Positions 6,098 through 30,109 of a stretch of 32,000 nt of DNA are shown piece after piece. The stretch lies in contig NC_014033.1 in NCBI RefSeq assembly GCF_000025925.1, positions 3,000,001-3,032,000 on the forward strand, given 5' to 3'. The first letter of the stretch is position 1, and every line of letters begins with the position of its first letter. Source of the DNA: Xylanibacter ruminicola 23 (GTDB taxonomy: Bacteria > Bacteroidota > Bacteroidia > Bacteroidales > Bacteroidaceae). The translations under genes and the position numbers were made by a program. Under the pieces are notes generated by a model. That model was not told the DNA's origin. It saw nothing but the letters and a program-made list of their open reading frames with translations, and did no database searches.

Positions 6098-8449
6098 ATG
6101 AAAAGATTTGTTTTAGGAATGGCTGCATTAGTGTGTGCAGCAGGCGCAAACGCACAGCGTAAAGCAGCCCTCTACGATTCTACACAAGTAGAAGCGCTGA
6201 ACGAAATTGTAGTAAAAGGTGTCAGGACACAGAAAAATGCACCATTTGCAGTAGCAAACATCAAGAAAAAGGAGCTTAACGCTTTCTCGAACACAGGAAA
6301 AGAATTGCCTTTCCTCTTTTCGCAGACCCCAGGTGTACTGGCTTGGAGCGAAAACGGACTGGGCACAGGTACTACTTATATGCGCATTCGTGGTGCAGGC
6401 GATTCGCGCATCAACGTAACACTGGATGGCGTACCCCTGAATTCGCCTGAAGATCAGTGTGTTTTCTGGGCCAACATGAACTCTTACGGTTCGCTGTTAG
6501 GTAGTGTACAGATTCAGCGCGGTGTAGGCACATCAACCAACGGTGATGGCGCCTTTGGCGGAACTGTAGCACTCGCTTCAGCCATTCCAAATCAGAAGGC
6601 TGGGGGAGAAGTGTCAGTATCATACGGCTCATTCAACACATTCAATGTAGGTGGAAAGTTCTCAACAGGTTTACTGTGGAATCATCTGATTTTTGATGGT
6701 GCCTATCACGAGACCAATACTGATGGATTTATCCATGGAACCAGCGGACGCAGCGGTTCTTACTATGGCGGACTCACCTGGATTGGCAACAAGTTCCAGA
6801 TTCGTTATAAGAACATCGGAAACTTTGAAAAAACCGGTCAGGCTTGGAACGGCGTAACAGCAGGCGACAACGATATGAGTCTGATGGACGGAACTTACGG
6901 TATCAACACTGGCATCAAGACCTACAAGGATATGTGGAACGCCGGTCTGGGCAAGTACAACTCGCTGTACGAATACCTGACTGGTTACGAAAAAGATGCC
7001 AACGGCAACTATCCCACAGCGCGCTATCAGCTGAACGACGGCAGCTATTGGAACAAAACCACCGATAACTTCTGGCAGAACCACAACATCCTCTCAGCCG
7101 CCTACGATATCAACGACAACTGGAGCATTTCAGGTTCGCTGCACTACACTTACGGCTACGGCTATTATAACGAGTTCCGTCCTCAGAACAAGCTGAAGAA
7201 GTTTGGCATGACCTACAGCGGCGTTAAAAAGACCGACTTCGTGCGCCAGAAAGGACTGAGCCAGAACACTTACGGTTTTATCTGGAATGCAAACTACAAG
7301 AACGATGCATGGGATGTTATCGGCGGCATGTCGCTTCAGGAGTTCGACGGCAATCACTTTGGTTATGTTACCTATATTGCCAACGATGATGTACGAAAGA
7401 AATACATGTCTAATGGCGACTACAAATACTACGATTCTGATGCCACCAAGTTTGATGGTAGCGCCTTTGTAAAGGCTGCTTATCACATCAACGAACAGTG
7501 GGATATCTTCGGCGACCTGCAGTATCGCTACGTACAGTACGAAAGTAACGGTATTAACGATAAGTTCTACGAAGAGGGCAGCAGCTATTACAACCAGCGC
7601 CTCGATATCGATCAGAAGTATCGTTTCCTGAATCCCAAGGCCGGTTTCTCTTGGAATCTGAACAATCACCGCATTTACGGATCGGTAGCACTTAGCCACC
7701 GCGAACCAGAACGTAATAACTTTACAGATAATGGTGCAAAGCCATTCCCTAAGGCCGAAAGCCTGTTAGATTACGAGTTGGGTTACACCTTTAACAACGA
7801 CATCTTCCGCTTTGGTGTAAACCTTTATTACATGGACTACACCAACCAGTTTGTACAGACTGGCGAGAAGAGTGATATTGGCGAGGATCTTACCACAAAC
7901 ATCAAAGACTCATACCGTATGGGCGTAGAAATCCAGGGTGGGGTAGATGTTACCTCTTGGCTCAGCATTGAGGGTAATGCTTCACTCAGCCAGAATAAAA
8001 TCAAAGACTTCGACGAGGTGGCCAGCGTAAACTGGGAAGAGTCGTTCCGCACTATCCACTACGACAACTCTACACTTGCTTTCTCACCCTCAACCATCCT
8101 GAACGGTTTTGTAAACCTGCATTGGAATGGTTTGCAGGCTGTATGGCACACCAATTTTGTAAGCCGTCAGTACCTGGATAATACAGAGAACGCTGATCGT
8201 TCGCTGCCTTGCTACTCAGCTTCTGATGCCAACATCAGCTACACCTGGAAACCCAATAAAGCCATCAAGGAGTGCATCTTCGGTCTGAATTTCAACAACA
8301 TCTTCAATCGTCGCTATGCCGCCAATGGCTGGGTATATTCAAGCATCGTTGAAGAATACGGTCATCCCAACGAGAACCGCTACTATCAGATTGGATTCAT
8401 TCCTATGGCAGGCTTTACAATGATGGGTAATGTAACACTCCGATTCTAA
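6098..8449 (+). CDS. TonB-dependent outer-membrane receptor, TPP-riboswitch controlled (probable thiamine uptake)
   Basis: Signal peptide MKRFVLGMAALVCAAGANAQ. Plug-domain motifs (IVVKG, IRGAGDSRINVTLDGVPLN), a long beta-barrel region and a terminal aromatic residue (TLRF). The substrate is inferred from the riboswitch context. Confidence 0.85.
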   Translation: MKRFVLGMAALVCAAGANAQRKAALYDSTQVEALNEIVVKGVRTQKNAPFAVANIKKKELNAFSNTGKELPFLFSQTPGVLAWSENGLGTGTTYMRIRGAGDSRINVTLDGVPLNSPEDQCVFWANMNSYGSLLGSVQIQRGVGTSTNGDGAFGGTVALASAIPNQKAGGEVSVSYGSFNTFNVGGKFSTGLLWNHLIFDGAYHETNTDGFIHGTSGRSGSYYGGLTWIGNKFQIRYKNIGNFEKTGQAWNGVTAGDNDMSLMDGTYGINTGIKTYKDMWNAGLGKYNSLYEYLTGYEKDANGNYPTARYQLNDGSYWNKTTDNFWQNHNILSAAYDINDNWSISGSLHYTYGYGYYNEFRPQNKLKKFGMTYSGVKKTDFVRQKGLSQNTYGFIWNANYKNDAWDVIGGMSLQEFDGNHFGYVTYIANDDVRKKYMSNGDYKYYDSDATKFDGSAFVKAAYHINEQWDIFGDLQYRYVQYESNGINDKFYEEGSSYYNQRLDIDQKYRFLNPKAGFSWNLNNHRIYGSVALSHREPERNNFTDNGAKPFPKAESLLDYELGYTFNNDIFRFGVNLYYMDYTNQFVQTGEKSDIGEDLTTNIKDSYRMGVEIQGGVDVTSWLSIEGNASLSQNKIKDFDEVASVNWEESFRTIHYDNSTLAFSPSTILNGFVNLHWNGLQAVWHTNFVSRQYLDNTENADRSLPCYSASDANISYTWKPNKAIKECIFGLNFNNIFNRRYAANGWVYSSIVEEYGHPNENRYYQIGFIPMAGFTMMGNVTLRF

Positions 8450-9033
8450 TGGCAGATTTTATTTCAGCACACTGGCTCGACATCACTACCACGTTACTCG
8501 GACTGCTCTATATCCTGTTCGAGTATCGCGCCAGCGTATGGCTTTGGTTTGTAGGATTTCTGATGCAGGCCTTAGGCATTGTGCTATACTATCAAAAAGG
8601 ACTCTATGCCGATTGCGGCATGGAGTTCTATTATCTTTCGATGACCGTTTACGGCTATTGGAAATGGGTACACGGTTCGGCCGAGAAGAAAGAGCTGCCT
8701 ATCACGCGATTCCCACGCCGACTGATAATCCCTTGGTTGGCTGTTATTCTGGCCATCTGGGGCATTATTTATTGGCTGCTGATTACCTTTACCAACAGTA
8801 ACGTTCCAGCAGCCGACAGTTTTACTACAGCCCTCAGCATTGTTGGTATCTGGGCCTTGGCTCATAAATACCTGGAACAATGGTTCATCTGGATTGCTGT
8901 CGACGTTGTAACCTGTGTTCTTTACTTCTATAAGGACATTCCTTTCAAAGCCGGTCTTTATGCACTTTATGTAGTTATTGCCATTTTTGGCTACAAAAAA
9001 TGGAAACGAATGACAGATAATCGCCCTATTTGA
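8449..9033 (+). CDS. pnuT: PnuC-family transporter, PnuT-type (thiamine) by context
   Basis: 194-aa polytopic membrane protein with the W-rich PnuC-like pattern (YGYWKW ... FGYKKWKR). Its start overlaps the receptor stop (TAATG). It is in a TPP-riboswitch operon, the arrangement described for Bacteroidota thiamine uptake. Confidence 0.75.
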   Translation: MADFISAHWLDITTTLLGLLYILFEYRASVWLWFVGFLMQALGIVLYYQKGLYADCGMEFYYLSMTVYGYWKWVHGSAEKKELPITRFPRRLIIPWLAVILAIWGIIYWLLITFTNSNVPAADSFTTALSIVGIWALAHKYLEQWFIWIAVDVVTCVLYFYKDIPFKAGLYALYVVIAIFGYKKWKRMTDNRPI

Positions 9034-12727: not shown

Positions 12728-13106
12728 GCGCCCCGATAACAACTGCCGAAGTAACACCAGTAGCATTAGCCGCCAAATCAAGCCAATCGCCACTGCGATG
12801 CCCAAACGTACAGTATTCCTGTAACAGCTCCAACACACCACTCATAACGATTGGTGCCAGCCAAGCCCAAAAGAACAGCTTCTCGTAATCTGCCTGCTTA
12901 TGCTTGCAGGTATACTCTATCCATACTACGATGAACGTACAACCATACATCAGGATATGCACCCATTTATCGGCAAACTCCACATTGTCGAGTGGTGTCT
13001 CTGGAAAAAAGGGCACCAATGAAAGAATCCATATCATTGCGATACAGACCATTGAAAAAGGGTACTTTCTTAAGAAATGAAACAAAAAACTCATATTTAC
13101 TTGCAA
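12699..13106 (-). CDS. VanZ-like family membrane protein
   Basis: Four TM segments with the VanZ-type motifs DKWVH and ELLQE...R.GDWLDLAANATG. The start is uncertain (13106, 13094 or 13052). The 3' end overlaps the CYTH gene by 29 nt (convergent). Confidence 0.7.
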   Translation of the reverse strand: MQVNMSFLFHFLRKYPFSMVCIAMIWILSLVPFFPETPLDNVEFADKWVHILMYGCTFIVVWIEYTCKHKQADYEKLFFWAWLAPIVMSGVLELLQEYCTFGHRSGDWLDLAANATGVTSAVVIGALIWYFRPKK

Positions 13107-13114
13107 TTTAGGTG

Positions 13115-13122
13115 CAAAATTA
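13115..13122 (-). promoter_or_regulatory. -7 promoter box (TAATTTTG on the minus strand) for the VanZ-like gene
   Basis: The reverse complement of caaaatta matches TAnnTTTG. It is only 9 nt from the ATG at 13106, so either a near-leaderless mRNA or a downstream start is used. Confidence 0.35.
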
Positions 13123-13134
13123 AGAAATTATTTA

Positions 13135-13142
13135 TACTTTTG
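13135..13142 (+). promoter_or_regulatory. -7 promoter box TACTTTTG for the SNF transporter pair
   Basis: TAnnTTTG match 25 nt upstream of the ATG at 13167. Confidence 0.45.
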
Positions 13143-13166
13143 CAATCAAAATTTAAAAAAGTTGAT

Positions 13167-14531
13167 ATGACAAAACTTGAAAGGGCAAGTTTCGGTAGTA
13201 AATTAGGTGTAATTCTGGCCACAGCAGGTTCGGCTGTTGGCTTAGGCAATATATGGCGCTTTCCGTATATGACAGGACAGAATGGTGGCGCCGTTTTCAT
13301 TATTATCTATGTGTTCTGTATCCTGTTGTTGGGCATTCCATGTATGATAAGCGAGTTTATTATTGGTCGTCATGGTCAGGCAAACACAGCTCGCGCATTC
13401 CGTATCATGTCGGGCGATACCATCTGGTCGCTCATTGGCTATATGGGGGTGCTTACAGGTTTTCTTATCTCAGGCTATTATGCTGTGGTATCCGGCTGGT
13501 GCCTCGAGTACGTATGGGCCTCGCTTTCAGGCAAACTCTTAGGCAATCCCGACTATATCCAATCGTACTTCGTCACGTTCTCTCAGGATCCTATCAAGCC
13601 TGTATTCTGGACGTTTATCATTCTGCTGGGCACCTATATTATTATTGAGAATGGTGTACGCAACGGTATTGAGAAGGCATCAAAGCTTATGATGCCCATA
13701 TTGTTTATACTGTTGCTCATCATTGTTGTAGCATCGTGCATGCTGCCAAATGCCGAAAAGGGTATCGAGTTCTTATTTAAGCCCGATATTTCGAAACTAA
13801 ACAGCGATGTATTCCTAGCAGCCTTAGGCCAGTCGTTCTACTCGCTGAGTATTGCAATGGGATGTATCTGCACCTATGCCAGCTACTATTCTAAGCAAAC
13901 CAATCTCACGGCTTCGGCTGTAAATATCAGTATCATCGATTTCCTGGTAGCCCTGCTGGCCGGACTGATTATCTTCCCTGCAGCCTTCTCAGTAGGAGTT
14001 AATCCCGATAGTGGTCCTTCGCTCATATTTATCACGTTGCCTAACGTATTCCACCAGGCATTTGGAAATATTGCAAGTTTAGGATACATTATTTCAGTAC
14101 TGTTTTATACCTTACTCTCGATGGCAGCACTTACATCACTCATGTCGTTGCACGAAGTAAGCACAGCATTCCTTGAGGAGGAGCTTGGCACCACCCGCAA
14201 ACGTGCGGCTATGTTTGTAACAATCGGCAGCATTCTGGTTGGTACCGTCTGCTCATTGTCGCTCGGTCCTTGGCAGGACTTTAAATTGTTCGACATGACC
14301 ATCTTCGACCTCTTCGACTTTGTAACTGGTCAGTTGTTCCTGCCTATCGTGGGCTTCCTTACCTGTATCTTTATCGGCTGGTATGTGCCACATAAGATAG
14401 TACGCGATGAGTTTACCAATATGGGCACCTTGCGCAATGAACATCTGTTTCATAGCTACATCTTCCTTGTAAAGTATGTGTGTCCTATCTGCATACTGTT
14501 TATATTCCTTCACCAATTCGGACTATTGTAA
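13167..14531 (+). CDS. Sodium-dependent transporter, neurotransmitter:sodium symporter (SNF) family, copy 1
   Basis: NSS signature GSAVGLGNIWRFPYMTGQNGGAVF with about 11-12 TM segments. I place the start at the internal Met (MTKLERASFGSKLG) because the track's longer ORF from 13077 runs through the promoter box. Confidence 0.9.
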   Translation: MTKLERASFGSKLGVILATAGSAVGLGNIWRFPYMTGQNGGAVFIIIYVFCILLLGIPCMISEFIIGRHGQANTARAFRIMSGDTIWSLIGYMGVLTGFLISGYYAVVSGWCLEYVWASLSGKLLGNPDYIQSYFVTFSQDPIKPVFWTFIILLGTYIIIENGVRNGIEKASKLMMPILFILLLIIVVASCMLPNAEKGIEFLFKPDISKLNSDVFLAALGQSFYSLSIAMGCICTYASYYSKQTNLTASAVNISIIDFLVALLAGLIIFPAAFSVGVNPDSGPSLIFITLPNVFHQAFGNIASLGYIISVLFYTLLSMAALTSLMSLHEVSTAFLEEELGTTRKRAAMFVTIGSILVGTVCSLSLGPWQDFKLFDMTIFDLFDFVTGQLFLPIVGFLTCIFIGWYVPHKIVRDEFTNMGTLRNEHLFHSYIFLVKYVCPICILFIFLHQFGLL

Positions 14532-15884
14532 ATGGAGAACAGAGGTACATTTGGCAGCAAACTGGCCATTATCCTGACTACAGCAGGATCGGCCGTAGGA
14601 TTAGGAAACATCTGGCGCTTTCCATTCATGACGGGTCAGAATGGCGGTGCCGCTTTCATACTTATCTACCTGGGATGTGTGCTGATATTAGGCATTCCAG
14701 GTATGATTAGCGAATTTGTAGTTGGCCGTTACTCACAATCCAACGCTGCCAGAGCTTATGGCAACGTAGGATTCAAGCGCGCCAAGTATATTGGCTACTT
14801 GGGCATTCTTACATCTACCATTATCCTTGGCTTCTATGCCGTTGTGGCCGGTTGGTGCTTGCAATACCTGTATGCCTCGATAACTGGTAAGCTGATTGGT
14901 GATACCAGCTACATCATCGAATACTTTAAAAACTTTTCGAGCGACCCCATCCGTCCCTGCTTGTGGGGTGTTGGCTTTGTACTGATTACACACTATGTAG
15001 TGGCCAAAGGCGTAAACGATGGTATAGAACGAGCATCCAAGTTGCTCATGCCGCTTTTGCTCATACTGCTGGTTATCATTGTTATTGCATCGTGCCTGCT
15101 TCCAGGTGCTTCAAAAGGTATAGAATTCCTGCTCAAGCCAGATTTCTCGAAAGTAAGCAGCAATGTATTCCTCGAGGCTTTAGGCCAGGCTTTCTTCTCG
15201 TTAAGCTTGGGTACCGCTTGTTTGTGTACTTACGCTTCGTATTTTAAAAAAGATACCAACCTTGTTAAATCAGCTACTCAGATAGCCTTACTCGACTCGA
15301 TGATAGCCATCTTAGCAGGTTTGATGATATTCCCAGCCGCCTTCTCGGTTGGCGTACAGCCCGATAGCGGTCCATCGCTCATATTCATTACACTGCCTAA
15401 TGTGTTCCGTCAGGCGTTTGTAGGCATGCCTATCATTGGATTCGTTATCGCCATCCTGTTTTATGCCCTGCTGGTGTTTGCAGCCTTAACATCTACCATC
15501 TCTATGCACGAGATTGGTACAGCATTCTTCCACGAAGAGTTGCATCTGCCAAGAAACAAGGCCGCATGGATACTGACTACCGTTTGTGGACTGATAACCA
15601 TATTCTGCTCGCTATCCGTAGGAGCCTACAGTCAGATACAGGTATTCGGTATGTCGCTGATGGACTTCTGCGACTCGCTTACAGCGCAAATCATGCTACC
15701 CACTGGCGCCTTCTTTACCAGCATACTTATCGGATGGTTTGTTGAGCGCAAACTGGTACTCAATGAGTTTACAAACAACGGTTCGCTAAAGGCCACCTTT
15801 TTTAGCGCCTATCTGTTCTCTGTTAAGTTCATTGTTCCTCTCTGTATCCTATTAATATTCCTGCATCAGTTCCATATTATATGA
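14532..15884 (+). CDS. Sodium-dependent transporter, SNF family, copy 2 (tandem paralog)
   Basis: GSAVGLGNIWRFPFMTGQNGGAAF. It is collinear with copy 1 over its whole length. The ATG directly follows the stop of copy 1 (TAAATG). Confidence 0.9.
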   Translation: MENRGTFGSKLAIILTTAGSAVGLGNIWRFPFMTGQNGGAAFILIYLGCVLILGIPGMISEFVVGRYSQSNAARAYGNVGFKRAKYIGYLGILTSTIILGFYAVVAGWCLQYLYASITGKLIGDTSYIIEYFKNFSSDPIRPCLWGVGFVLITHYVVAKGVNDGIERASKLLMPLLLILLVIIVIASCLLPGASKGIEFLLKPDFSKVSSNVFLEALGQAFFSLSLGTACLCTYASYFKKDTNLVKSATQIALLDSMIAILAGLMIFPAAFSVGVQPDSGPSLIFITLPNVFRQAFVGMPIIGFVIAILFYALLVFAALTSTISMHEIGTAFFHEELHLPRNKAAWILTTVCGLITIFCSLSVGAYSQIQVFGMSLMDFCDSLTAQIMLPTGAFFTSILIGWFVERKLVLNEFTNNGSLKATFFSAYLFSVKFIVPLCILLIFLHQFHII

Positions 15885-16765
15885 TACGCGAATTCTTTTA
15901 TCTGCAAAAGTCCGACCGTAAAGTTATACTCTCGCTGTTAGTAGTCATCGTATCGGTATTCACCATGATATGTCTGACTGGTGGAAATGATACATCGACA
16001 ACCACCACACAAAAGAATTCGCCCCGTTCAGCTGCCCGCAAAAACCATTACTATGCCAGCAGCCCTAAGAAGGTAGAACGATTCGTCTTCGACCCTAATA
16101 CAGCTGATAGCACCCAACTGCTGCGTTTAGGATTGCAACCTTGGCAGGTTCGCAACATTTATAAATACCGTGCTGCTGGTGGCATTTATCGCCAACCTAT
16201 CGATTTTGCCAAGCTTTATGGACTAACCGTTAAGCAATATCGCGAACTGGAGCCTTACATCCGCATCTCCAGCGATTACCTGCCAGCATCTACGCTGGTA
16301 AAAGAACGGGCAAGCTATAGTCCGAAAGCAACCAAGGATACAGTAGTTGTCTATCAGCGCCCCACGAAGATAAAGGCTACAGAACATATAGTGCTGAATA
16401 CTGCCGATAGCACAGCGCTGACAACCATTCCTGGTATCGGTCCTTACTACGCTCGCCGAATTATACAATACGGCAATAGGTTAGGAGGTTACGTGAGTGT
16501 AGAACAACTCGATGAAATCGACGATTTCCCGACAGAAGCCAAGCAATATCTGGTGATAAACAACCCTGCACCTAAGAAACTGAACATCAACCAATTATCG
16601 CTTAACGAATTAAGACGCCATCCATACATCAACTTTTATATGGCTAAAGCCATCACCGATTATCGCCGTCTGCATGGCACCATCACATCACTAAACGAAC
16701 TACGACTTATTAAAGACTTTACACCCGAAGTTATTAAGCGCCTTACGCCCTATGTTGCGTACTGA
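15881..16765 (+). CDS. ComEA-like helix-hairpin-helix DNA-binding protein, membrane anchored, with three HhH modules
   Basis: N-terminal TM segment (VILSLLVVIVSVFTMICL). Three repeats of the ComEA-type module are present: FDPNTADSTQLLRLGL..., LNTADSTALTTIPGIGPYYARRII... and LNINQLSLNELRRHPYINFYMAKAI.... The ATGA start overlaps the upstream stop. Confidence 0.75.
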   Translation: MIREFFYLQKSDRKVILSLLVVIVSVFTMICLTGGNDTSTTTTQKNSPRSAARKNHYYASSPKKVERFVFDPNTADSTQLLRLGLQPWQVRNIYKYRAAGGIYRQPIDFAKLYGLTVKQYRELEPYIRISSDYLPASTLVKERASYSPKATKDTVVVYQRPTKIKATEHIVLNTADSTALTTIPGIGPYYARRIIQYGNRLGGYVSVEQLDEIDDFPTEAKQYLVINNPAPKKLNINQLSLNELRRHPYINFYMAKAITDYRRLHGTITSLNELRLIKDFTPEVIKRLTPYVAY

Positions 16766-16812: not shown

Positions 16813-16820
16813 TATATTTG
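16813..16820 (+). promoter_or_regulatory. -7 promoter box TATATTTG upstream of tatA
   Basis: TAnnTTTG match 28 nt upstream of the ATG at 16848. Confidence 0.45.
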
Positions 16821-16847: not shown

Positions 16848-17033
16848 ATGTTTGGATTAGGATTCCAGGAAATACTGGTTATTGCACTGATAGTATTGCT
16901 GTTCTTTGGCGGCAAGAAGATTCCTGAACTGATGCGTGGCCTGGGTAAAGGCGTAAAAAGCTTCAAGGAGGGAATGAACGAGGTTACAGACTTGAAAGAA
17001 GAGGTAGAAAAGGACGAGAAGAAGGATGCGTGA
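16848..17033 (+). CDS. tatA: Twin-arginine translocase subunit TatA/E
   Basis: 61 aa. MFGLGFQEILVIALIVLLFFGGKKIPELMRGLGKGVKSFKEG is the canonical TatA TM helix, hinge and amphipathic helix. Confidence 0.88.
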   Translation: MFGLGFQEILVIALIVLLFFGGKKIPELMRGLGKGVKSFKEGMNEVTDLKEEVEKDEKKDA

Positions 17034-17772
17034 TACACCCACAATGACGTTCTGGGATCATCTCGACGAACTGCGTGGGGTGATAGTCAGAGTGTTGGTG
17101 GTAACAGTCATTGGAGCATCAGTTGCCTTCTGCTTAAAGGACGAACTCTTTGCCATCGTACTGGCACCACGCTCCAGCGATTTCATCACCTACCAACTAT
17201 TGGGCGTAGAACCATTCTGTGTTCATCTGATGAACATCGGACTTACAGAACAGTTCATGGTTCACCTTAAAACAGCCTTCTATGCAGGCGTTCTGGTGGC
17301 TTCGCCTTATATCATCTACCAACTCTTCCGCTTTGTATCGCCAGCGCTCTATGACAACGAAAGGAAATACGCCACACTGCTCTGCTTTAGCGGCTACCTG
17401 ATGTTTATGCTGGGCACAGCACTCAACTATCTGCTGATATTCCCGCTTACCGTCAAGTTCCTTGGCACTTATCAGGTTAGTCCCGATGTAGCAAATATGC
17501 TCACATTGCAATCGTACATGGATACGTTGCTGATGATGAACCTGGTGATGGGTATTGTGTTCGAACTGCCTGTAGTAAGCTGGCTGTTAGGCAAGATGGG
17601 ACTGATTAATGCTGCGATGATGCAGAGCATACGCCGGCATGCTGTAGTAGCAATACTGGTTGTAGCTGCGATTATCACCCCCACTACCGATGCCTTTACG
17701 CTCATTGTGGTAGCATTGCCCATCTGGCTGCTCTACGAACTGAGCATTGTGATAGTAAGAATAACCGAATAG
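17026..17772 (+). CDS. tatC: Twin-arginine translocase subunit TatC
   Basis: TatC N-terminal motif FWDHLDELR followed by six TM segments. The start is either 17026 (8-nt overlap with tatA) or 17044 (MTFWDHLDELR). Confidence 0.88.
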   Translation: MRDTPTMTFWDHLDELRGVIVRVLVVTVIGASVAFCLKDELFAIVLAPRSSDFITYQLLGVEPFCVHLMNIGLTEQFMVHLKTAFYAGVLVASPYIIYQLFRFVSPALYDNERKYATLLCFSGYLMFMLGTALNYLLIFPLTVKFLGTYQVSPDVANMLTLQSYMDTLLMMNLVMGIVFELPVVSWLLGKMGLINAAMMQSIRRHAVVAILVVAAIITPTTDAFTLIVVALPIWLLYELSIVIVRITE

Positions 17773-17795
17773 ATAAATACTTATATAATAAACTT

Positions 17796-19280
17796 ATGCT
17801 TCGTAAAATCAGAACCATCCTTGCAGCGGTGATGTTTGTACTGATCACCCTGCTGTTCCTCGACTTTACAGGAACGTTGCACCATTGGCTTTCATGGTGT
17901 GCCAAGATTCAGTTCTTGCCCGCAGTGATGGCACTCAATGTGGTAGTGGTAGCGGCATTTTTGATTATTACACTTATTTGTGGCCGCACTTACTGCTCTA
18001 TCATCTGTCCTATGGGCGTATTTCAGGACATACTAGCCCGACTGAACAGAAAAAAGAACAAATACAGCTATTCGAAAGAGGTTCGCTGGTTGCGTTACCC
18101 AGTACTTGTGGTATTTATCATTGCAGGTGTAGCTGGCATCGGCTCTATATTCCAGTTGTTAGCTCCTTATAGCAGCTACGGACGTATCGCCACCATGATA
18201 TTCCAGCCCGTTTGGAAGATGGGTAACAACATCTTAGCCGAACTGGCTGAGCGCGCCGATAGCTATGCTTTCTACAGCGTTGATACATGGATGCGCTCAA
18301 TGCCTGTATTCGTGATTGCTGCTGTTACCCTGGTAGTAATATTTATCTTGGCTTGGCGAGGCGGACGTACCTATTGCAACACCATCTGCCCAGTAGGTAC
18401 CATCCTGTCTTTCTTTGCCCGTTTCTCATGGCTTAAAATCCGATTCGACGAAGATAAGTGCAAGAACTGCTCACTCTGTTCAAAGAACTGCAAAGCATCT
18501 TGTATCGATTTTAAGACACACAGTATCGACTATACCCGTTGCGTGGTTTGTGGTAACTGTATCGATAGTTGTAAGTTTGGTGCGCTGAAGTACACAGCTG
18601 CCGGCCCATCAAAAAAGACAAATAAAGCAAACGATGCCAACCCCATCAATACCTCAAAGCGCTCGTTCCTGTTGGCAACAGCCTTGGTAACTACAGCCGC
18701 TTTGGCTCAGAAAAAGAAAGAGAAGCTGATGGATGGCGGACTGGCAGAACTGGAAGATAAGGTAGCTCCTGAGCGCCAGACACCGCTCACACCTCCAGGT
18801 TCGCTCTCGTTCCAGAATCTGGCCACACGATGCACAGGCTGCCAGCTTTGTGTATCAGAGTGCCCCAACCAGGTGTTGCGTCCTAGTAGCGATTTAATGC
18901 ACCTGATGCAGCCCACCATGTCGTACGAGCACGGCTATTGTCGCCCAGAGTGTACGCGTTGCTCTGAAGTTTGTCCTGCAGGTGCCATCCAGAAGGTTGA
19001 TAAAGAAGAGAAAACAGCCATCCAGATTGGTCATGCTGTTTGGATTAAGAAGAACTGTGTTCCCATTACCGATGGGGTAGAGTGCGGCAACTGTGCACGC
19101 CACTGTCCTTCGGGTGCTATCGAAATGGTTCCACTCGATGAGAACGATGAGGAATCACCAATGGTTCCTGCAATCAACGAGGCTGCATGTATTGGCTGCG
19201 GTGCCTGCGAGTATGTTTGTCCGGCTCGTCCATTCTCAGCTATCTATGTCGAGGGACACGAAGTTCACAAGAAGATTTAA
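17796..19280 (+). CDS. Membrane polyferredoxin: a NapH-like N-terminal half fused to a NapG-like C-terminal half
   Basis: The N-terminal half has about four TM segments, two GRTYCxxxCPxG motifs (CSIICP, CNTICP) and two CxxCxxCxxxC ferredoxin motifs. It is followed by an internal SKRSFLLATALVTTAALAQ segment. The C-terminal half has four more Cys cluster motifs (CTGCQLCVSECP, CRPECTRCSEVCP, CGNCARHCP, CIGCGACEYVCP). Confidence 0.8.
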   Translation: MLRKIRTILAAVMFVLITLLFLDFTGTLHHWLSWCAKIQFLPAVMALNVVVVAAFLIITLICGRTYCSIICPMGVFQDILARLNRKKNKYSYSKEVRWLRYPVLVVFIIAGVAGIGSIFQLLAPYSSYGRIATMIFQPVWKMGNNILAELAERADSYAFYSVDTWMRSMPVFVIAAVTLVVIFILAWRGGRTYCNTICPVGTILSFFARFSWLKIRFDEDKCKNCSLCSKNCKASCIDFKTHSIDYTRCVVCGNCIDSCKFGALKYTAAGPSKKTNKANDANPINTSKRSFLLATALVTTAALAQKKKEKLMDGGLAELEDKVAPERQTPLTPPGSLSFQNLATRCTGCQLCVSECPNQVLRPSSDLMHLMQPTMSYEHGYCRPECTRCSEVCPAGAIQKVDKEEKTAIQIGHAVWIKKNCVPITDGVECGNCARHCPSGAIEMVPLDENDEESPMVPAINEAACIGCGACEYVCPARPFSAIYVEGHEVHKKI

Positions 19281-19285
19281 GGAGG
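19280..19285 (+). promoter_or_regulatory. Shine-Dalgarno-like AGGAGG 7 nt upstream of the AKR start codon
   Basis: Sequence TAAGGAGGATAATTTATG. It is the only start codon in this window preceded by a full AGGAGG. Functionality in a Bacteroidota host is uncertain. Confidence 0.3.
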
Positions 19286-19292
19286 ATAATTT

Positions 19293-20699
19293 ATGGAAAA
19301 GAAGAATATAACACGCCGTGCGTTCCTTAAGCTCTTTGGAGCAGGATCAGTAGCTACAGCCGCTACACTTGCAGGATGCAAAAGTGGCAATAAGGCAGGT
19401 AGTCAGGCAAAACAAGAATATAGGAACCAGGTTGAACCACCTGTTGGTCAGATGACCTATCGCGTTAACCCAAAGAATAAGGACAAGGTTTCTATTCTGG
19501 GCTATGGTATGATGCGCCTGCCATCTAAGGTGGATAACAGCGATGAGTTTGATCAGGACATGATTAACAAGCAAATCGATTATGCCTTGGCTCATGGTCT
19601 GAACTACATCGATACATCGCCTGTATATTGTCAGGGAAAGTCAGAGCGCTGCACAGGTATCGCCCTGAGCCGCCACAAGCGTAGCGAGTACTTTGTGGCC
19701 ACCAAACTCTCCAACTTCAACCACGACTACTGGTCATTCGAGAAGTCGAAGGAGATGTACCACAACTCTATGAAGGAGCTGCAAGTTGATTACATCGACT
19801 ACTATCTGCTGCATGCTGTAGGTGGCAGCATGGAGGAATTTAACGGGCGCTATGTGGATAATGGCATAATGGACTATCTGCTGAAGGAGCGCGAGGCAGG
19901 CCGCATTCGTAACCTGGGATTCTCGTTCCACGGTAAGCAGGAAGTGTTCGACGAGGTGCTGGCCCTCGACGAGAAGTACCATTGGGACTTTGTACAGATT
20001 GAGCTGAACTATCTGGATTGGGATTATGCCAACGAGATTAGTCAGAGCAACGTAGATGCCAGTTATCTATATGCCGAGCTGCAAAAGAAAGGCATACCTG
20101 CAGTTATTATGGAACCGCTGTTAGGAGGCCGATTGGCTAACCTCCCACAGTATCTGATGACAGAACTGAAGAGTCGCGACCCAGAGCGTAGCGTGGCATC
20201 ATGGGCTTTCCGCTATGCAGGCACCAACGAGGGCGTACTTACCGTATTGAGCGGTATGACCTATATGGAGCACCTGAAGGATAACCTGCTCTCGTACTGT
20301 CCGCTGAAACCACTTACCGAAGAGGAGATGCGATTCCTTGACAAGGATATCGCTCAGAAGATTGTAGGTCTCGAAAACATTCCTTGCAACGATTGTAAGT
20401 ACTGCATGCCTTGTCCTTACGGTGTGGATATACCAGCCATCTTTGTACACTACAACAAGTGCAAGAACGAGGGTTCGCTGCCTATGGGAGTGGGCGATGC
20501 TGAGTATCGCAAGCATCGTCGCCAGTATCTCATTTCGCTGGACCGTGTAGTTCCTCGCGATCGCCAGCCTGATCATTGCATCCAGTGCGGCCAGTGTGAG
20601 CCTCATTGTCCACAAAGCATTCGCATTCCACGCGAACTGGCAAAGATTGATGAGATGATTGAGAGCTTGAAGCGCAACCCAGAGGGCCCAGAAGTATAA
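19293..20699 (+). CDS. Aldo/keto reductase-family oxidoreductase with a Tat signal, a lipobox and a C-terminal 4Fe-4S ferredoxin domain
   Basis: The N-terminus MEKKNITRRAFLKLFGAGSVATAATLAGC carries the TRRAFLK twin-arginine consensus and the LAGC lipobox. The AKR core is recognisable (LGYGMMRLP, YIDTSPVY, DYYLLH). The C-terminus has CNDCKYCMPCP and CIQCGQCEPHCP. Confidence 0.85.
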   Translation: MEKKNITRRAFLKLFGAGSVATAATLAGCKSGNKAGSQAKQEYRNQVEPPVGQMTYRVNPKNKDKVSILGYGMMRLPSKVDNSDEFDQDMINKQIDYALAHGLNYIDTSPVYCQGKSERCTGIALSRHKRSEYFVATKLSNFNHDYWSFEKSKEMYHNSMKELQVDYIDYYLLHAVGGSMEEFNGRYVDNGIMDYLLKEREAGRIRNLGFSFHGKQEVFDEVLALDEKYHWDFVQIELNYLDWDYANEISQSNVDASYLYAELQKKGIPAVIMEPLLGGRLANLPQYLMTELKSRDPERSVASWAFRYAGTNEGVLTVLSGMTYMEHLKDNLLSYCPLKPLTEEEMRFLDKDIAQKIVGLENIPCNDCKYCMPCPYGVDIPAIFVHYNKCKNEGSLPMGVGDAEYRKHRRQYLISLDRVVPRDRQPDHCIQCGQCEPHCPQSIRIPRELAKIDEMIESLKRNPEGPEV

Positions 20700-20712: not shown

Positions 20713-20744
20713 TTTGGTTAATTGCCTAATTTGCAGTACCTTTG
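20713..20744 (+). promoter_or_regulatory. Promoter with -33 TTTG (20713..20716) and -7 TACCTTTG (20737..20744) for ychF-lgt
   Basis: Both elements are present with a 20-nt gap, 28 nt upstream of the ATG at 20773. Confidence 0.5.
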
Positions 20745-20772: not shown

Positions 20773-21873
20773 ATGGCATTAAAATGTGGTATTGTAGGAC
20801 TGCCAAATGTGGGCAAGTCTACCTTGTTTAATTGTCTGTCGAGTGCCAAAGCTCAGGCAGCAAACTTCCCTTTTTGTACAATCGAACCCAATGTGGGTGT
20901 AATCACTGTACCTGATGAAAGACTGACCAAACTCGCTGAGTTGGTTCACCCAGGACGTATCGTTCCTGCTACCTGCGAGATTGTAGATATTGCAGGTCTC
21001 GTAAAAGGCGCCTCTAAGGGCGAAGGATTAGGCAATAAATTCCTTGGAAATATCCGCGAAACCGATGCTATCATCCACGTACTGCGTTGTTTCGAGGATG
21101 AAAATATCACTCACGTTGATGGCACTATCGACCCCATCCGCGATAAGGAGATTATCGATACAGAGCTTCAGCTGAAGGACCTTGAGACTATCGAGAGCCG
21201 CTTGGCTAAGACCGAGAAGGCCGCAGCTGCTGGTAATAAGGACGCTAAGATCGAGGCTACCGTACTACACGCTTATAAAGAGGTGCTGGAGCAGGGTAAG
21301 AATGCCCGTATCGTAGAGTTCGAAAGCAAGGACGAGCAGGATTGCGCTCGCAATCTGTTCCTGCTCACTTCAAAGCCTGTGCTTTACGTTTGTAACGTAG
21401 GCGAGACTGATGCTAAATCAGGTAATGCCTTTACCAAGAAGGTAGAGGAGCTGGCAAAGGAAGAGGGCGCAGAAACCATGGTGATTGCCGCTAAGACCGA
21501 AGAGGATATCGCTGAACTGGAGAGCTACGAGGACAAGCAGATGTTCTTGGAAGAGCTTGGCTTAGAGGAGAGTGGTGTAAACCGACTGATTAAGAAGGCT
21601 TATGCGCTGCTGAACCTCGAAACCTTTATCACCGCTGGTGAGATGGAGGTGAAGGCTTGGACCTACAAGAAGGGCTGGAAGGCTCCACAGTGTGCAGGTG
21701 TGATCCACACCGACTTTGAGAAGGGCTTTATCCGTGCCGAAGTAATCAAGTACGACGACTATATCCAGTATGGCTCTGAGGCAGCTGTACGCGAGGCTGG
21801 TAAGCTGGCCGTTGAGGGTAAGGAGTACGTAGTACAGGATGGCGACATTATGCATTTCCGCTTTAACGTATGA
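20773..21873 (+). CDS. ychF: Redox-regulated ribosome-binding ATPase YchF
   Basis: G1 motif [25 protein letters not shown], and the C-terminal TGS-like domain (KAWTYKKG...[14 protein letters not shown]). Confidence 0.95.
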
Positions 21874-22724
21874 TGAATCTACTCAACTATATCCTTTGGG
21901 ATCCAAATCTGGTTGCATTTAAACTGGGCCCTTTTTCAATTCGCTGGTACGGACTGATGTGGGTCATCGGATTGGTTGTGGCCTACCTCTTGGTTCAGCG
22001 CCTCTACAAGGAGCAGAAGATTAAGGACGAATATTTTGATCCGCTCGCATTCTACTGTTTCTTCGGCATCCTGATTGGTGCTCGTCTGGGTCATTGCTTA
22101 TTCTACGAGCCCGATTATTTCCTGACTTCAAGCAAGGGAATAATTGAGATGATACTGCCTATCCGTTTTGGCGATGATGGCAGTTGGCTAGGACAAACAT
22201 TTGGCTTTCACGTCATCGGCTATGCTGGTTTGGCCTCGCATGGCGGAACTTTAGGCTTGATGATTGCCCTCTGGATGTATGTACGCAGAACCAAACTGAG
22301 CATCTGGACGGTGCTCGATAATATAGCGATTGCCACAGGTTCCACGGCCTGCTGTATCCGCTTGGGCAACCTGATGAACTCAGAGATTATCGGCAAGATT
22401 ACCGATGTACCCTGGGCATTCATCTTCGAGAAAGTTGATGCCGTTCCACGCCATCCAGGACAGTTGTACGAGGCCATCGCCTACGCCATCTTGTTTGTCA
22501 TCATGTGGACTCTGCATAAAAAGAAGCCTGAGAAGATTGGTACTGGCTGGTATTTCGGTTTCTGTCTCACCTATATCTTCACCTTCCGCTTCTTCATCGA
22601 ATACACCAAGGAGGTACAGGAGGCCTTCGAGGCATCGCTTCCCATCGATATGGGACAGATACTCTCTATTCCCTTTATCATATTGGGAACCTACTGCATG
22701 ATAAAAGCCAAGAAAAAGGCTTAA
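21870..22724 (+). CDS. lgt: Prolipoprotein diacylglyceryl transferase
   Basis: Lgt-type N-terminus ([18 protein letters not shown]), [18 protein letters not shown], and the conserved RHPGQLYEA segment. ATGA overlap with ychF. Confidence 0.9.
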
Positions 22725-26930: not shown

Positions 26931-28946
26931 ATGATGAATCGAGCATTCACATTGGCAATGGCTTGCGTGTTGACGATGACAACGGCAGCACAAAGCAAGT
27001 TAGATTCCGTACAGCATGTGCGGGAGATAATTGTTGTGTCGAAGCCTGCCATGCGCGAGGTGGTACCCAGTCAGAAACTGAAGGGCGAACTGCTGGAACA
27101 ACTGAACACGCACTCTGTGGCCGATGCGTTGCGCTATTTCTCAGGTGTCCAACTAAAGGATTATGGCGGCGTGGGCGGCATTAAAACAGTAAACATCCGC
27201 TCGATGGGTACGCATCACTTAGGCATCAGCTACGATGGTGTGCAGTTAGGTAATGCGCAGAACGGACAGATTGACTTGGGCCAGTTCTCACTTGATAACG
27301 TAGAGGATATCACACTTTATAACGGCCAGAAGAGTGCCATCTTCCAGCCCGCCAGCGATTTTGGAAACGCCGGTTCTATCTATATCCGTACCAAAGCGCC
27401 TGATTTCAAGAAAGGCGAGAATACCCATCTGCGATTTAAAACCCAGTATGGTTCAAGCGATATGTTCCGCTTTTCTACCCTTTGGGAGCAGAAACTGTCA
27501 TCAACCATCAGCTCATCGGTAAGTGCCGGCTTCTTAACAGCCAGCGGTAAGTATAAGTTCCATTACGAGCGAAAATATCCTAACGGACAAACGGCTTGGG
27601 ACACAACGGCTGTGCGACAGAACGGCGATATACATGCTGAACGTATCGAAGCAAACCTGTTTGGCCGATTGGAGCAGGGTAGTTGGCAGCTTAAGGGTTA
27701 TCTATATAACTCAGCCCGAGGCATTCCTGGTGCCATCGTAAACAACGTATGGCGACGTGGTGAGCGCCAACAGGATTTGAACACCTTTGTACAAGTCGAT
27801 TATAATAAGAATATAGGCGATGGTTTCAGCACCCGATGGCTGGCCAAGTATGCCTATTACAACACCCACTACGTAAACAAGGATACCACCCAGCTACCTG
27901 TTGACAATCGTTACAAGCAGCAGGAGTTCTATCTTTCTACAGCCAATGTACTGGAGCTGCTACCCAACTGGAGTGCATCGCTGGCCTACGATTTTAAGTG
28001 GAACAAACTGAATGCTGATATCTACAACTTTGCATACCCCACACGCATCTCTAATCTGGTAAGCTTAGCCACAGCTATCGACTACAAACATCTGAAGGCG
28101 CAGGGCTCTATCCTGGCTACCTTTATCCACGACAAAACCCACCGCAGGGGTGAGTTTGCAGGCTTAAACAGCAGTCATTCGCTATCTAAACTCACGCCGG
28201 CGCTATTTGTTAACGTGTATCCCTTCCGAGGCACCTTCTTCTCTATGCGAGCCTACGTAAAAAAGAGTTTCCGCATGCCGACCTTCAACGACCTGTATTA
28301 TACCGATATGGGTAATGCCAACCTGGTGCCCGAGAGCGCCTTGCAGTACGATGCCGGCTTTGCGCTTAACAAGCACTTTGAGCATAGTATCATTCGCCAT
28401 GCCGAGATGCACTTCGATGCCTATTATAATACAGTACACGATAAAATTGTGGCTTACCCCAAGGGGCAGCAGTTCCGTTGGACGATGCTGAACTTAGGTA
28501 AAGTTCACATCAAGGGAATAGATGTTGAGGCCGAGGCCGATTTCAAGATTGGTAAGGATCTGATAGCTACCACTCGTGCCCAGTACACTTATCAGGATGC
28601 ACGCGATGTTACTGATGCCGAAACCTCGTATTATAAGCATCAGATACCCTACATCCCCTGGCACTCAGGTTCTGCTATTCTGGGTCTTACCTATAAGAAC
28701 TGGAACCTGAACTACTCGTTTATCTATGCGGGCGAACGCTACGACGAGCAGGAGAACATTATCTATAACCACATGGAACCTTGGTACACCAGCGACCTGA
28801 GTCTGGGAGTTTGGTGGAAAGTAAATAGTGTGCTGATGAAAGCGCACTTGGATGTGAACAATCTCTTAGGTCAGGATTACGAGGTAATCGTAAATTACCC
28901 CATGCCTGGTCGCAACTATGCACTAACATTAAGCGTTGAGATATGA
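26931..28946 (+). CDS. btuB: TonB-dependent receptor, BtuB-like (cobamide uptake by riboswitch context)
   Basis: Signal peptide MMNRAFTLAMACVLTMTTAAQS. Plug motifs (IRSMGTHHLGISYDGVQLGN), a 22-strand-type barrel length (671 aa) and a C-terminal TLSVEI. The substrate is inferred from the B12 riboswitch. Confidence 0.8.
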   Translation: MMNRAFTLAMACVLTMTTAAQSKLDSVQHVREIIVVSKPAMREVVPSQKLKGELLEQLNTHSVADALRYFSGVQLKDYGGVGGIKTVNIRSMGTHHLGISYDGVQLGNAQNGQIDLGQFSLDNVEDITLYNGQKSAIFQPASDFGNAGSIYIRTKAPDFKKGENTHLRFKTQYGSSDMFRFSTLWEQKLSSTISSSVSAGFLTASGKYKFHYERKYPNGQTAWDTTAVRQNGDIHAERIEANLFGRLEQGSWQLKGYLYNSARGIPGAIVNNVWRRGERQQDLNTFVQVDYNKNIGDGFSTRWLAKYAYYNTHYVNKDTTQLPVDNRYKQQEFYLSTANVLELLPNWSASLAYDFKWNKLNADIYNFAYPTRISNLVSLATAIDYKHLKAQGSILATFIHDKTHRRGEFAGLNSSHSLSKLTPALFVNVYPFRGTFFSMRAYVKKSFRMPTFNDLYYTDMGNANLVPESALQYDAGFALNKHFEHSIIRHAEMHFDAYYNTVHDKIVAYPKGQQFRWTMLNLGKVHIKGIDVEAEADFKIGKDLIATTRAQYTYQDARDVTDAETSYYKHQIPYIPWHSGSAILGLTYKNWNLNYSFIYAGERYDEQENIIYNHMEPWYTSDLSLGVWWKVNSVLMKAHLDVNNLLGQDYEVIVNYPMPGRNYALTLSVEI

Positions 28947-30109
28947 AGCAGCTAGCGTACTACATATTAACCCTGTTGCTCCTTTCGGCCTGTCGCCAGG
29001 ATGTGATGATAGTGCCGATGGAGAAAAGCGATCCAGGCGGTAAAACGCAGCAGGGCGATATCATAGGTATGTATCTGCTGAATGAGGGCAACATGGGATC
29101 GAACAAGTCGTCGCTCGACTATCTCGACCTGTCGGATTCTACAGCCCACTATTATCGCAACATCTACTCGCAGCGCAACCCAAGTACTGTAATGTCGCTG
29201 GGCGATGTGGGTAACGACTGTCAGATATATGGCTCGCGTCTGTGGCTGGTTATCAACTGCTCAAACAAGGTTGAAGTGGCCCGTGCCGATTCGGCTATCA
29301 GAATAGGAAAGGTAAACATTCCTAACTGCCGATACGTGACGTTTAACGATCGCTATGCCTACGTGTCATCGTATGTGGGAACGGTTTATGCTTCGAGCAA
29401 CAGTCCGTTGGGTAGCGTGTATAAGGTAGATACACTCACCTTGCAAAAGGTTGACTCTTGTAGTGTAGGCTATCAGCCTGAGGAGATGGCCATTATCGGC
29501 AACCAGCTATATGTAGCCAACAGTGGTGGCTATCAAGGTATGACGGGACAGGGTTATGAGAGTACGGTAAGTGTGATAGATATGGCTACCATGCAAGAAA
29601 CCAGCAAGGTAGAGGTTGCCCCCAACCTGCACCACCTGAAGGCCGATAAGTACAATCAGCTGTGGGTAACGGCTCGTGGCGACTATATGACTGAGGCACC
29701 AAGCATCTGGTGGCTGGCACCCGACGAAAACGGCCAGATGAAAGTAGGTGGACACATCGATCAGGCAGTAAGCGATCTGTGTATTGTGGGCGATTCGCTC
29801 TATTTCTACGGTTCTCAATGGAGCGAGGTGTCGATGAGTAATACCATCACCTATGGTATCATCAACGTAAAAACGCATCAGGTGGTAAGCACCAGTCTGT
29901 CGAGTGCACCCGAGATTAGCAAGATACGCATGCCTTATGGCATCATTGTAAACCCCATCCATCGCGATTTTTATCTGATGGATGCCAAGAACTATGTATC
30001 GAGTGGCGAGTTGCTGCACTTCCTGCCCGATGGCACCTTCGACTGGAAGGTAAGCACAGGCGATATACCCGCCCACGCAGCATTTTTATTTAAAACAACA
30101 AAAAAATGA
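28943..30109 (+). CDS. Surface lipoprotein, YncE/DUF5074-like beta-propeller. BtuG-like by position directly downstream of btuB.
   Basis: Lipoprotein signal LLLLSAC. The motif GMYLLNEGNMGSNKSSLDYLD and repeated strand patterns are typical of YncE-like propellers. ATGA overlap with btuB. The BtuG assignment is contextual (established Bacteroides btuB-btuG arrangement), not shown by alignment. Confidence 0.6.
   Translation: MKQLAYYILTLLLLSACRQDVMIVPMEKSDPGGKTQQGDIIGMYLLNEGNMGSNKSSLDYLDLSDSTAHYYRNIYSQRNPSTVMSLGDVGNDCQIYGSRLWLVINCSNKVEVARADSAIRIGKVNIPNCRYVTFNDRYAYVSSYVGTVYASSNSPLGSVYKVDTLTLQKVDSCSVGYQPEEMAIIGNQLYVANSGGYQGMTGQGYESTVSVIDMATMQETSKVEVAPNLHHLKADKYNQLWVTARGDYMTEAPSIWWLAPDENGQMKVGGHIDQAVSDLCIVGDSLYFYGSQWSEVSMSNTITYGIINVKTHQVVSTSLSSAPEISKIRMPYGIIVNPIHRDFYLMDAKNYVSSGELLHFLPDGTFDWKVSTGDIPAHAAFLFKTTKK

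Follow-up and report, generated by a model that had tools for sequence, protein, structure and literature searches.

We examined a 32,000-nucleotide stretch of Xylanibacter ruminicola 23 (contig NC_014033.1, positions 3,000,001 to 3,032,000; hereafter the window, whose own numbering is used throughout) in which a twin-arginine translocation (Tat) gene pair, tatA-tatC, runs into genes for a polyferredoxin (PFD) and an aldo-keto reductase (AKR) with an iron-sulfur (Fe-S) tail. The four open reading frames (ORFs) all lie on the + strand—tatA at 16848-17033, tatC at 17026-17772, PFD (494 residues) at 17796-19280 and AKR (468 residues) at 19293-20699—and their coordinates agree with the tight packing and the gaps described in an initial annotation of this DNA. 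tatA and tatC overlap by 8 nt, or stand 10 nt apart if tatC begins at its alternative start, Met7 at 17044; 23 nt separate tatC from PFD and 12 nt separate PFD from AKR. A comEA-like gene stops 82 nt 5' of tatA, and ychF (TIGR00092 match, 490 bits) begins 73 nt 3' of AKR. Both Tat components score above NCBI curated cut-offs: TatA (61 residues, hydrophobic segment at residues 1-29) matches PF02416 with 57 bits and TIGR01411 with 64.3 bits against a cut-off of 53.9, and TatC (248 residues) matches PF00902 with 221 bits and TIGR00945 with 173.4 bits against 132.7. We read the cluster as a candidate extracytoplasmic redox module encoded together with the machinery that would export it.

Conservation in AKR was judged in 21 diverse and 145 closer homologues, and a genome scan was built on an alignment of 7 AKR sequences. 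The N terminus of the protein, MEKKNITRRAFLKLFGAGSVATAATLAGC, holds a Tat motif, TRRAFLK, and a lipobox, LAGC, both of which had been picked out in the initial annotation and which together define a signal peptide from M1 to C29 (19293..19379, + strand). Within it, the motif T7-R-R-A-F-L-K13 is joined by a hydrophobic (h) region with a Kyte-Doolittle value of 1.44 to the lipobox L26-A-G-C29. R8, R9 and C29 are invariant among the 145 homologues, the RR pair is invariant among the 21 diverse ones too, and 92 of the 145 also fit a strict lipobox pattern. In an AlphaFold2 (AF2) model, residues 12-42 have a predicted local distance difference test score (pLDDT) below 50, which fits a signal peptide followed by a flexible tether. 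From these features we infer that AKR is exported by Tat and lipidated at C29. It is the sole ORF of at least 100 residues in the window with an N-terminal RR motif, and no other Tat client of this kind was found there. A run of acidic residues after the lipobox Cys is the lipoprotein export signal of Bacteroidetes. A surface-exposed lipoprotein is unlikely here: in each of the 92 lipobox-matching homologues, the five positions that follow the Cys hold 0 or 1 Asp/Glu.

Downstream of the signal lies an (alpha/beta)8 barrel (19452..20348, + strand; PF00248 over residues 69-351, 125.4 bits against a cut-off of 24) with the tetrad D107/Y112/K138/H174. The AKR fold previously assigned to this protein is borne out by the Pfam score, by an AF2 barrel modelled from a 145-sequence alignment with pLDDT above 90 over most of its length (about 70-85 at residues 241-300), and by a Foldseek search with the model, which returned AKRs only, with L-galactose dehydrogenase and AKR11C1 at the top (E ~1e-15). 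Sequence and fold searches of the Protein Data Bank (PDB) recovered ordinary AKRs over about 300-340 columns, namely the L-galactose dehydrogenases 8usu, 7smi and 9w6y, AKR11C1 (1ynp), AKR14A1 (4ast) and TM1743. The tetrad D107, Y112, K138 and H174 aligns with D43, Y48, K77 and H110 of AKR1B1; this profile alignment covered the tetrad region only, and the C-terminal cofactor loops were mapped by motif inspection and by alignment to 1ynp. Together with the tetrad, the cofactor-loop motifs S211, Q235, PLLGG (275-279), LSGMT (319-323) and D330-N331 are invariant or nearly so in both homologue sets.

The barrel is followed by a C-terminal domain with eight Cys residues (20370..20627, + strand; Fer4_9, 30 bits against a cut-off of 27), predicted to bind two [4Fe-4S] clusters. 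Two CxxCxxCxxxCP motifs had been reported in this tail. The second, C429xxC432xxC435xxxC439P (429-440), has that canonical form; the first, C365xxC368xxC371xxC374P (365-375), has two residues before its last Cys and reads CxxCxxCxxCP. All eight Cys residues (C365, C368, C371, C374, C429, C432, C435 and C439) are invariant in both the 21- and the 145-homologue sets. No solved structure covering the tail was returned by the PDB sequence or Foldseek searches.

PFD (17796..19280, + strand) is polytopic, with two Fer4_5 and four Fer4 matches alongside matches to NapH/MauN (1.3e-23) and NapG (1e-17). It is a fusion protein, in which a membrane half resembling NapH is joined to a four-cluster half resembling NapG. 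The N-terminal half has four strongly hydrophobic transmembrane segments (TMD1-4), two CX3CP motifs (C67/C71 and C194/C198) and two CxxCxxCxxxC motifs, at residues 222 and 249. The C-terminal half (18798..19280, + strand), recognized by its Cys motifs and by a match to the NapG model NF007012 at residues 313-485, has four Cys clusters, at residues 346, 382, 421/430 and 465, and is predicted to be periplasmic and to carry four [4Fe-4S] clusters. Sequence and fold searches for solved structures returned generic polyferredoxins only, none of them covering NapH or NapG.

Comparison of PFD orthologues revealed an internal Tat-type motif followed by a fifth transmembrane segment (TMD5), S-K288-R-S-F-L-L-ATALVTTAALAQ-KKKEK (18657..18725, + strand); its internal position is unlike that of the N-terminal Tat signal of NapG. 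Most orthologues have SRRxFL here, and members of the rumen Prevotella clade have SKRSFL: a scan of 77 proteins (76 genome loci plus the window) scored RR in 53, KR in 20, the window included, and RK or KK in four, these last being scan artefacts, at least three of which show a true RR motif further downstream. TMD5 has a Kyte-Doolittle value of 1.89, compared with 2.6-3.4 for TMD1-4, and is directly followed by positive charges (KKKEK). For a NapH-NapG fusion from MLMS-1, experiments showed that insertion of the first four helices is the work of Sec and that the folded Fe-S domain crosses the membrane by Tat (Tooke et al. 2017, PMC5449189). Because the internal motif, the weak TMD5 and the trailing charges of PFD match the signature described there, PFD is, by analogy, probably a Tat client in its own right. 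Right after TMD5 (18699-18725, residues ~302-310) there is also a conserved A-x-A-Q, 'ALAQKKKEK' in the window and 'LKAQEKKVDGGLA' elsewhere. It resembles a signal-peptidase-I site, so the NapG-like half may be cleaved from the NapH-like half after Tat transport.

The neighbourhood, whose conservation across Bacteroidota the initial annotation had singled out for checking, recurs widely in Bacteroidales. In a sample of 80 species-representative genomes, all labelled or evidently Bacteroidales, PFD lies directly 5' of AKR in 79, mostly with gaps of 11-60 nt (median ~20 nt). The genera include Prevotella, Phocaeicola, Parabacteroides, Bacteroides, Alistipes, Barnesiella and Duncaniella, and Muribaculaceae are also represented. 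Of the 63 loci whose flanks are complete, 38 have a tatA-tatC pair on the same strand at most 8 kb from AKR; the pair lies upstream in 18, the arrangement of the window, and downstream in 20. In the reverse test, which used 80 tatC-centred metagenome contigs, apparently of rumen-type Prevotella, PFD lies immediately 3' of tatC in 53 of the 64 informative contigs. Because the linkage, though not universal, survives changed gene order, it is good evidence that tatAC and PFD-AKR are functionally coupled. Separately, the neighbours of eleven tatA-tatC loci from related rumen bacteria, in whose available flanks neither PFD nor AKR was detected (L113, L115, L118, L120, L128, L130-L132, L151, L153 and L154), could reveal other Tat clients.

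Within the wider family, an exhaustive search of 1.84 billion cluster representatives with AKR returned 7839 relatives at E ≤1e-3 and 763 at E ≤1e-30; at least 588 stretches were confirmed in species-representative genomes, and each homologue search gave at least 8000 scored candidates. Among the best 150 relatives, 120 are at least 340 residues long. Of these, 39 carry an RR signal (median 448 residues) and the others are signal-less (median 379 residues), the signal-bearing AKR-FeS forms being ~70 residues longer at the N terminus. Tat forms are accordingly a subgroup within a larger family of AKR-FeS proteins that carry no signal and have not been characterised. A signal-less paralogue adjoins the Tat-type gene in L044 (3401-4549), L066 (9423-10571) and L167 (4856-5920), which would place cytoplasmic and periplasmic versions in one cluster. 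The closest relatives of AKR, in Prevotella, are annotated just 'aldo/keto reductase' or '4Fe-4S binding protein'; among the matches listed, the closest genome is that of Prevotella sp. ne3005 (89% identity) and the closest contig is metagenome contig L099 (AKR 93%, YchF 99%).

The plain database name 'aldo/keto reductase', and the unrelated housekeeping genes that flank the cluster in the window, are what one would expect if the four genes were chance neighbours and AKR an ordinary cytoplasmic NAD(P)H enzyme with a fortuitous RR and lipobox. We find this barely credible: RR and Cys29 are invariant, the signal-bearing forms stand apart in length from the signal-less ones, and the synteny found in 79 of 80 genomes recurs at 34-45% identity with altered gene order.

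This recurrence is seen in eight distant Tat-type AKR-FeS proteins with informative context (34-45% identity), seven of which adjoin a NapH-type or NapG-type partner. P0273 (L161) has a fused PFD downstream and P0283 (L172) a PFD upstream; P0260 (L171) and P0294 (L162) each have a PFD-like gene downstream, interrupted in both by the contig end; and P0335 (L163) adjoins an unfused NapG-like gene that carries its own RR signal. P0323 (L167/168) belongs to a full set, AKR-PFD-tatA-tatC, with TM1506 alongside, on a contig that seems to come from a Negativicute because of its LptFG and DUF1292 neighbours. P0259 (L164, 3237-6052) is accompanied by a short NapH-like protein with two CX3CP motifs only and by a secreted FMN_bind protein with the flavinylation motif VTGATFSS. 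In that locus, a flavin adaptor takes the place of the NapG-like Fe-S domain. NapH-like proteins have been described as modular conduits for extracytosolic reductases and oxidases, their reactions mostly uncharacterised (Meheust et al. 2021, eLife, PMC8238504), and the FMN_bind variant ties the module to these systems. Genome comparison speaks strongly for a functional module. Given the NapH-NapG fusion, the synteny in 79 of 80 genomes and the partners of seven of eight distant homologues, the earlier proposal of a NapG/NapH-type conduit feeding a periplasmic AKR stands as an architecture, and we consider it probable that PFD and AKR form a coupled conduit and enzyme.

TM1506/DUF1893 and a five-transmembrane (5-TM) ECF-S-like protein, frequent partners in other lineages that the initial annotation did not include, broaden this picture. 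A gene for one or both occurs beside AKR or elsewhere in the locus in 29 of the 80 Bacteroidales loci. The two genes sit between AKR and tatAC in L078 (9374-10320) and several other Bacteroidales loci; neither is in the window. In P0241, a Tat signal precedes an AKR-TM1506 fusion, a hint that export of TM1506 together with AKR is possible. Iyer et al. 2011 (PMC3239186) independently recorded operons in Firmicutes and Bacteroidetes that combine an AKR with TM1506 and a 5-TM protein, and put forward NAD or ADP-ribose as the ligand of TM1506. These operons, the 29 loci and the fusion would all suit a module that reduces a vitamin or cofactor precursor in the periplasm before uptake, with the 5-TM protein as importer and TM1506 as its ligand-binding partner. 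We rate such a role as quite improbable: the 5-TM protein matches ECF_trnsprt weakly (E = 4.7e-4, below the cut-off), NCBIfam assigned neither it nor the TM1506 protein, both genes are missing from the window, and no candidate substrate was identified.

In the mechanism that we propose, the cluster would be a self-contained extracytoplasmic redox module together with its assembly machinery, TatA and TatC exporting two cofactor-loaded clients. Sec would insert the NapH-like half of PFD, with its four TMDs, two CX3CP motifs and two cytoplasmic-side [4Fe-4S] motifs, and Tat would move the NapG-like four-cluster half across the membrane by way of the internal S-K/R-R-x-F-L motif and the weak fifth helix. 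AKR would be exported folded, with two [4Fe-4S] clusters, and anchored by its lipid at Cys29 on a flexible tether of ~25 residues. PFD would then link the Fe-S tail of AKR to menaquinol, through the NapH-like site, or to a cytoplasmic donor, through the cytoplasmic clusters, and the barrel with its Asp-Tyr-Lys-His tetrad would convert a small periplasmic substrate. The favoured substrate, for instance a quinone or an activated dicarbonyl and not a plain aldehyde or ketone, would accept single electrons and have a potential close to that of menaquinol or higher. The scheme starts from genes, motifs, a fold, synteny and a tat linkage that are all observed; export, lipidation, the contact between PFD and AKR, the direction of flow and the substrate are the parts that we infer.

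Several points, gathered here and in the next two paragraphs, weigh against the scheme. PFD reaches 83.9 bits against a cut-off of 213.05 for TIGR02163 and 76.2 against 234 for NF007013 (both NapH), and 60.6 against 178.85 for TIGR00397 and 64.2 against 269 for NF007012 (both NapG); because the scores for both proteins fall far below the curated cut-offs, PFD is best described as a relative of NapGH and not an orthologue. Its internal motif in the window is KR, not RR, and its AF2 model, built from an alignment of 84-91% identical sequences, was unusable (pLDDT 35). The Fe-S tail of AKR was modelled at a pLDDT of only 50-70. As to linkage, Phocaeicola oris (L020) is the sole exception among the 80 genomes, its AKR having no PFD nearby; 25 of the 63 loci have no tat linkage; 11 of the 64 tatC contigs have no PFD or AKR in their flanks (1.5 to 8 kb downstream of tatC); and P0268 (L166) is the only one of the eight distant homologues without a NapH/NapG-type partner.

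Energetics raise a further difficulty. By standard potentials, menaquinol (about -74 mV) falls short of what reduction of an ordinary carbonyl demands (about -200 mV), which would call for a higher-potential substrate, a low-potential cytoplasmic donor or a dehydrogenase that feeds menaquinone. Outward electron flow, with AKR as a reductase, is the direction that we favour, if only tentatively. In the opposite direction, AKR-FeS would act as a dehydrogenase that oxidises a periplasmic substrate, perhaps an aldose or an alcohol, and passes the electrons via its clusters and PFD to menaquinone, where they feed fumarate respiration. Oxidation of sugars or alcohols by menaquinone is downhill and the reverse is not; the closest structures are aldose 1-dehydrogenases (the L-galactose dehydrogenases 8usu, 7smi and 9w6y); some homologues have glycoside hydrolase or polysaccharide utilization locus neighbours (a rhamnosidase in L164, a fucosidase with SusCD in L166 and an amylase-like gene in L172); and NapH-like conduits also occur with extracytosolic oxidases such as ExaA (PMC8238504). 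We still regard this direction as doubtful, since the characterised relatives NapGH, NosR and PceC move electrons outward, the glycoside hydrolase genes come and go between loci, neither substrates nor residues specific for sugars were identified, and a dehydrogenase faces an equal problem of converting hydride to single electrons.

The cofactor is the other difficulty. The canonical nicotinamide-binding framework of AKRs is retained, and with the tetrad and cofactor-loop motifs invariant or nearly so, the part of the earlier proposal in which Fe-S clusters replace NAD(P)H could not be established. We know of no precedent for direct electron transfer from Fe-S to NAD(P) without a flavin, so the barrel may have given up NAD(P)H, or else electrons travel mainly by a route other than the clusters. 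The conserved motifs would also allow AKR to hold a nicotinamide cofactor tightly and carry it out through Tat, as the glucose-fructose oxidoreductase of Zymomonas does. AKR would then perform hydride chemistry on periplasmic substrates, and the Fe-S tail and PFD would only set, restore or sense its redox state. Invariance of the tetrad and of S211, Q235, P275-L276, S320-G321 and D330-N331 fits this account, as does the fact that Tat is a known route for nicotinamide-loaded enzymes; TM1506/DUF1893, the proposed NAD or ADP-ribose binder (PMC3239186), moreover adjoins or fuses with AKR in many lineages. We think it unlikely nonetheless: by manual motif alignment, the equivalents of the Lys/Arg residues that bind the 2'-phosphate appear to be Gly321 and His327, a transmembrane Fe-S conduit kept in 79 of 80 genomes would be a heavy investment for regulation, and the window lineage has no TM1506 nearby.

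Carried to its furthest point, the reductase scheme would make the AKR-FeS lipoprotein the first AKR-fold enzyme to work on single Fe-S electrons without nicotinamide or flavin, and tatAC-PFD-AKR a portable cassette of an export machine and its clients, the main reason that these fermentative anaerobes keep Tat. We offer this double claim as speculation, with considerable doubt. If true, a single-electron Fe-S AKR would be a new catalytic mode for the superfamily.

Each component of the module has a precedent: NapGH, the Sec/Tat dual-inserted polyferredoxin, the NapH-like modular systems and the association of AKR, TM1506 and the 5-TM protein. PFD resembles the NapG/NapH quinol dehydrogenase of periplasmic nitrate reductase (E. 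coli, Wolinella) in its NapH-like N-terminal half, with four TMDs, two CX3CP and two CxxCxxCxxxC motifs, and in the four Cys clusters of its C-terminal half, like those of Tat-exported NapG; it differs in being fused in one polypeptide and in having an AKR, not a molybdoenzyme, as its partner. No napA, napB or napC was found in the window, nor any molybdopterin oxidoreductase among the large window ORFs scanned, and a nap operon was rejected on the lack of napA and the NapG/NapH scores below cut-off. With the dual Sec/Tat polyferredoxin of MLMS-1 (Q1NSB0; Tooke et al. 2017, eLife, PMC5449189), PFD shares the NapH-NapG fusion, a Tat-type motif ahead of a weak TMD5, the positive charges after it and, by prediction, a four-cluster extracytoplasmic half. 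The published account places that family in Deltaproteobacteria, Chloroflexi, Nitrospirae and Euryarchaeota and names no partner enzyme (PMC5449189), whereas PFD has a Bacteroidales host, KR for RR in the window lineage and a fixed AKR-FeS partner.

NapH-like systems (NosR, PceC and uncharacterised clusters; PMC8238504) likewise use a PF12801 membrane Fe-S protein to join periplasmic enzymes to the electron pool. They are defined by a flavinylated FMN_bind domain plus ApbE, whereas the module in the window has a NapG-like four-cluster domain instead: PF12801 is present, neither FMN_bind nor ApbE turned up in the window ORFs scanned, and FMN_bind occurs only in the distant cluster L164. That paper mentions no AKR, and the supplement text searched contains no PF00248 entry.

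For AKR itself, the likeness to classical members of the superfamily (AKR11C1, 1ynp; L-galactose dehydrogenases, 8usu and 7smi; AKR14A1, 4ast) lies in the (alpha/beta)8 barrel, the tetrad and the cofactor-loop motifs. Those enzymes are soluble, cytoplasmic, NAD(P)H-dependent and without metal centres, whereas AKR has a Tat signal, a lipobox and a tail of the two-[4Fe-4S] type. AKR-FeS proteins of the signal-less COG1453 type, which are linked to TM1506/DUF1893 and a 5-TM protein (Iyer et al. 2011, NAR, PMC3239186), combine the barrel and the eight-Cys tail in ~379 residues and make up the bulk of the more distant homologues; they differ in having no signal peptide, PFD or tat linkage (for example, L169 and L170), and are likewise uncharacterised. 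The Zymomonas glucose-fructose oxidoreductase offers an analogy as a periplasmic nicotinamide-type oxidoreductase exported by Tat with its cofactor bound, but it has the Gfo/Idh/MocA fold, no Fe-S clusters and no membrane conduit.

Literature searches on Tat- or Fe-S-dependent AKRs, COG1453, polyferredoxins with AKRs, and Tat substrates of Bacteroides or Prevotella returned no characterised example, in keeping with what had been said of the arrangement at the outset. Within this searched literature, we found no earlier description of what appears to be a Tat-exported, lipid-anchored AKR-FeS protein combined with a NapH/NapG conduit and tatAC. The module is very common in Prevotella and other Bacteroidales, which are dominant in rumen and gut communities. 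If it is a periplasmic oxidoreductase wired to the electron pool, it would provide an unrecognised respiratory, detoxifying or nutrient-conditioning activity there. The AKR field would gain a member that is tethered to the membrane, contains Fe-S and is exported by Tat, in a superfamily whose enzymes count as soluble and dependent on NAD(P)H, and the Tat field a natural case of Sec/Tat dual insertion with a KR variant, along with tat genes that travel with their clients. Orthologues in genetically tractable Bacteroides, Parabacteroides and Phocaeicola make the hypothesis testable.

Promoter-like boxes at the cluster required some revision of the initial annotation. The two TAnnTTTG boxes that it named are both present: TATATTTG (16813..16820, + strand), a putative Bacteroidetes-type -7 promoter box 27 nt before the tatA ATG, and TACCTTTG (20737..20744, + strand), 28 nt before the ychF ATG, which sets the module off from the genes downstream. 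The tatA box does not stand alone, as the cluster itself contains two further + strand matches, one at 18572-18579 in the PFD gene and the other, TATGTTTG, at 19212..19219, also within the coding sequence of PFD and 73 nt upstream of the ATG of AKR. In arguing for co-transcription from promoters, the initial annotation had leaned on the incorrect claim of a single box. The match at 19212-19219 overlaps codons of a conserved E-Y-V-C-P in PFD and is a possible internal promoter or a chance match. In six related loci, the tatA box is kept as GTATATTTGCA despite variable flanks, and a seventh has the one-base variant GTATTTTTGCA. Across the window, TAnnTTTG occurs 23 times against 20.5 expected by chance, which is no enrichment. 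A terminator scan, itself at chance level, gave no convincing terminator between the four genes, and a sigma-70 promoter scan of the region was at chance level only.

The comEA-like gene directly 5' of tatA (15881-16765) encodes a triple helix-hairpin-helix protein and overlaps the second of two tandem SNF-family sodium symporters (13077-14531 and 14532-15884). On the other side, lgt, for prolipoprotein diacylglyceryl transferase (21870-22724), overlaps the ychF stop and lies two genes 3' of the AKR lipoprotein gene, probably by coincidence. Further upstream, a TonB-dependent receptor gene (6098-8449) has a PnuC/NMN-transporter family gene (8449-9033) starting over its stop, and the pair (6098-9033) resembles an outer- and inner-membrane uptake system for a vitamin or nucleoside. 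Near the downstream end, 26931-31999 looks like an uncharacterised surface uptake locus; it encodes a DUF5074 protein, a DUF4465 protein, a 372-residue protein without a Pfam match and a TonB-dependent receptor whose Plug domain alone was detected. On the - strand, 2280-3941 encodes a 553-residue protein with a phosphoribulokinase/uridine kinase domain in its C-terminal half only (residues 293-487).

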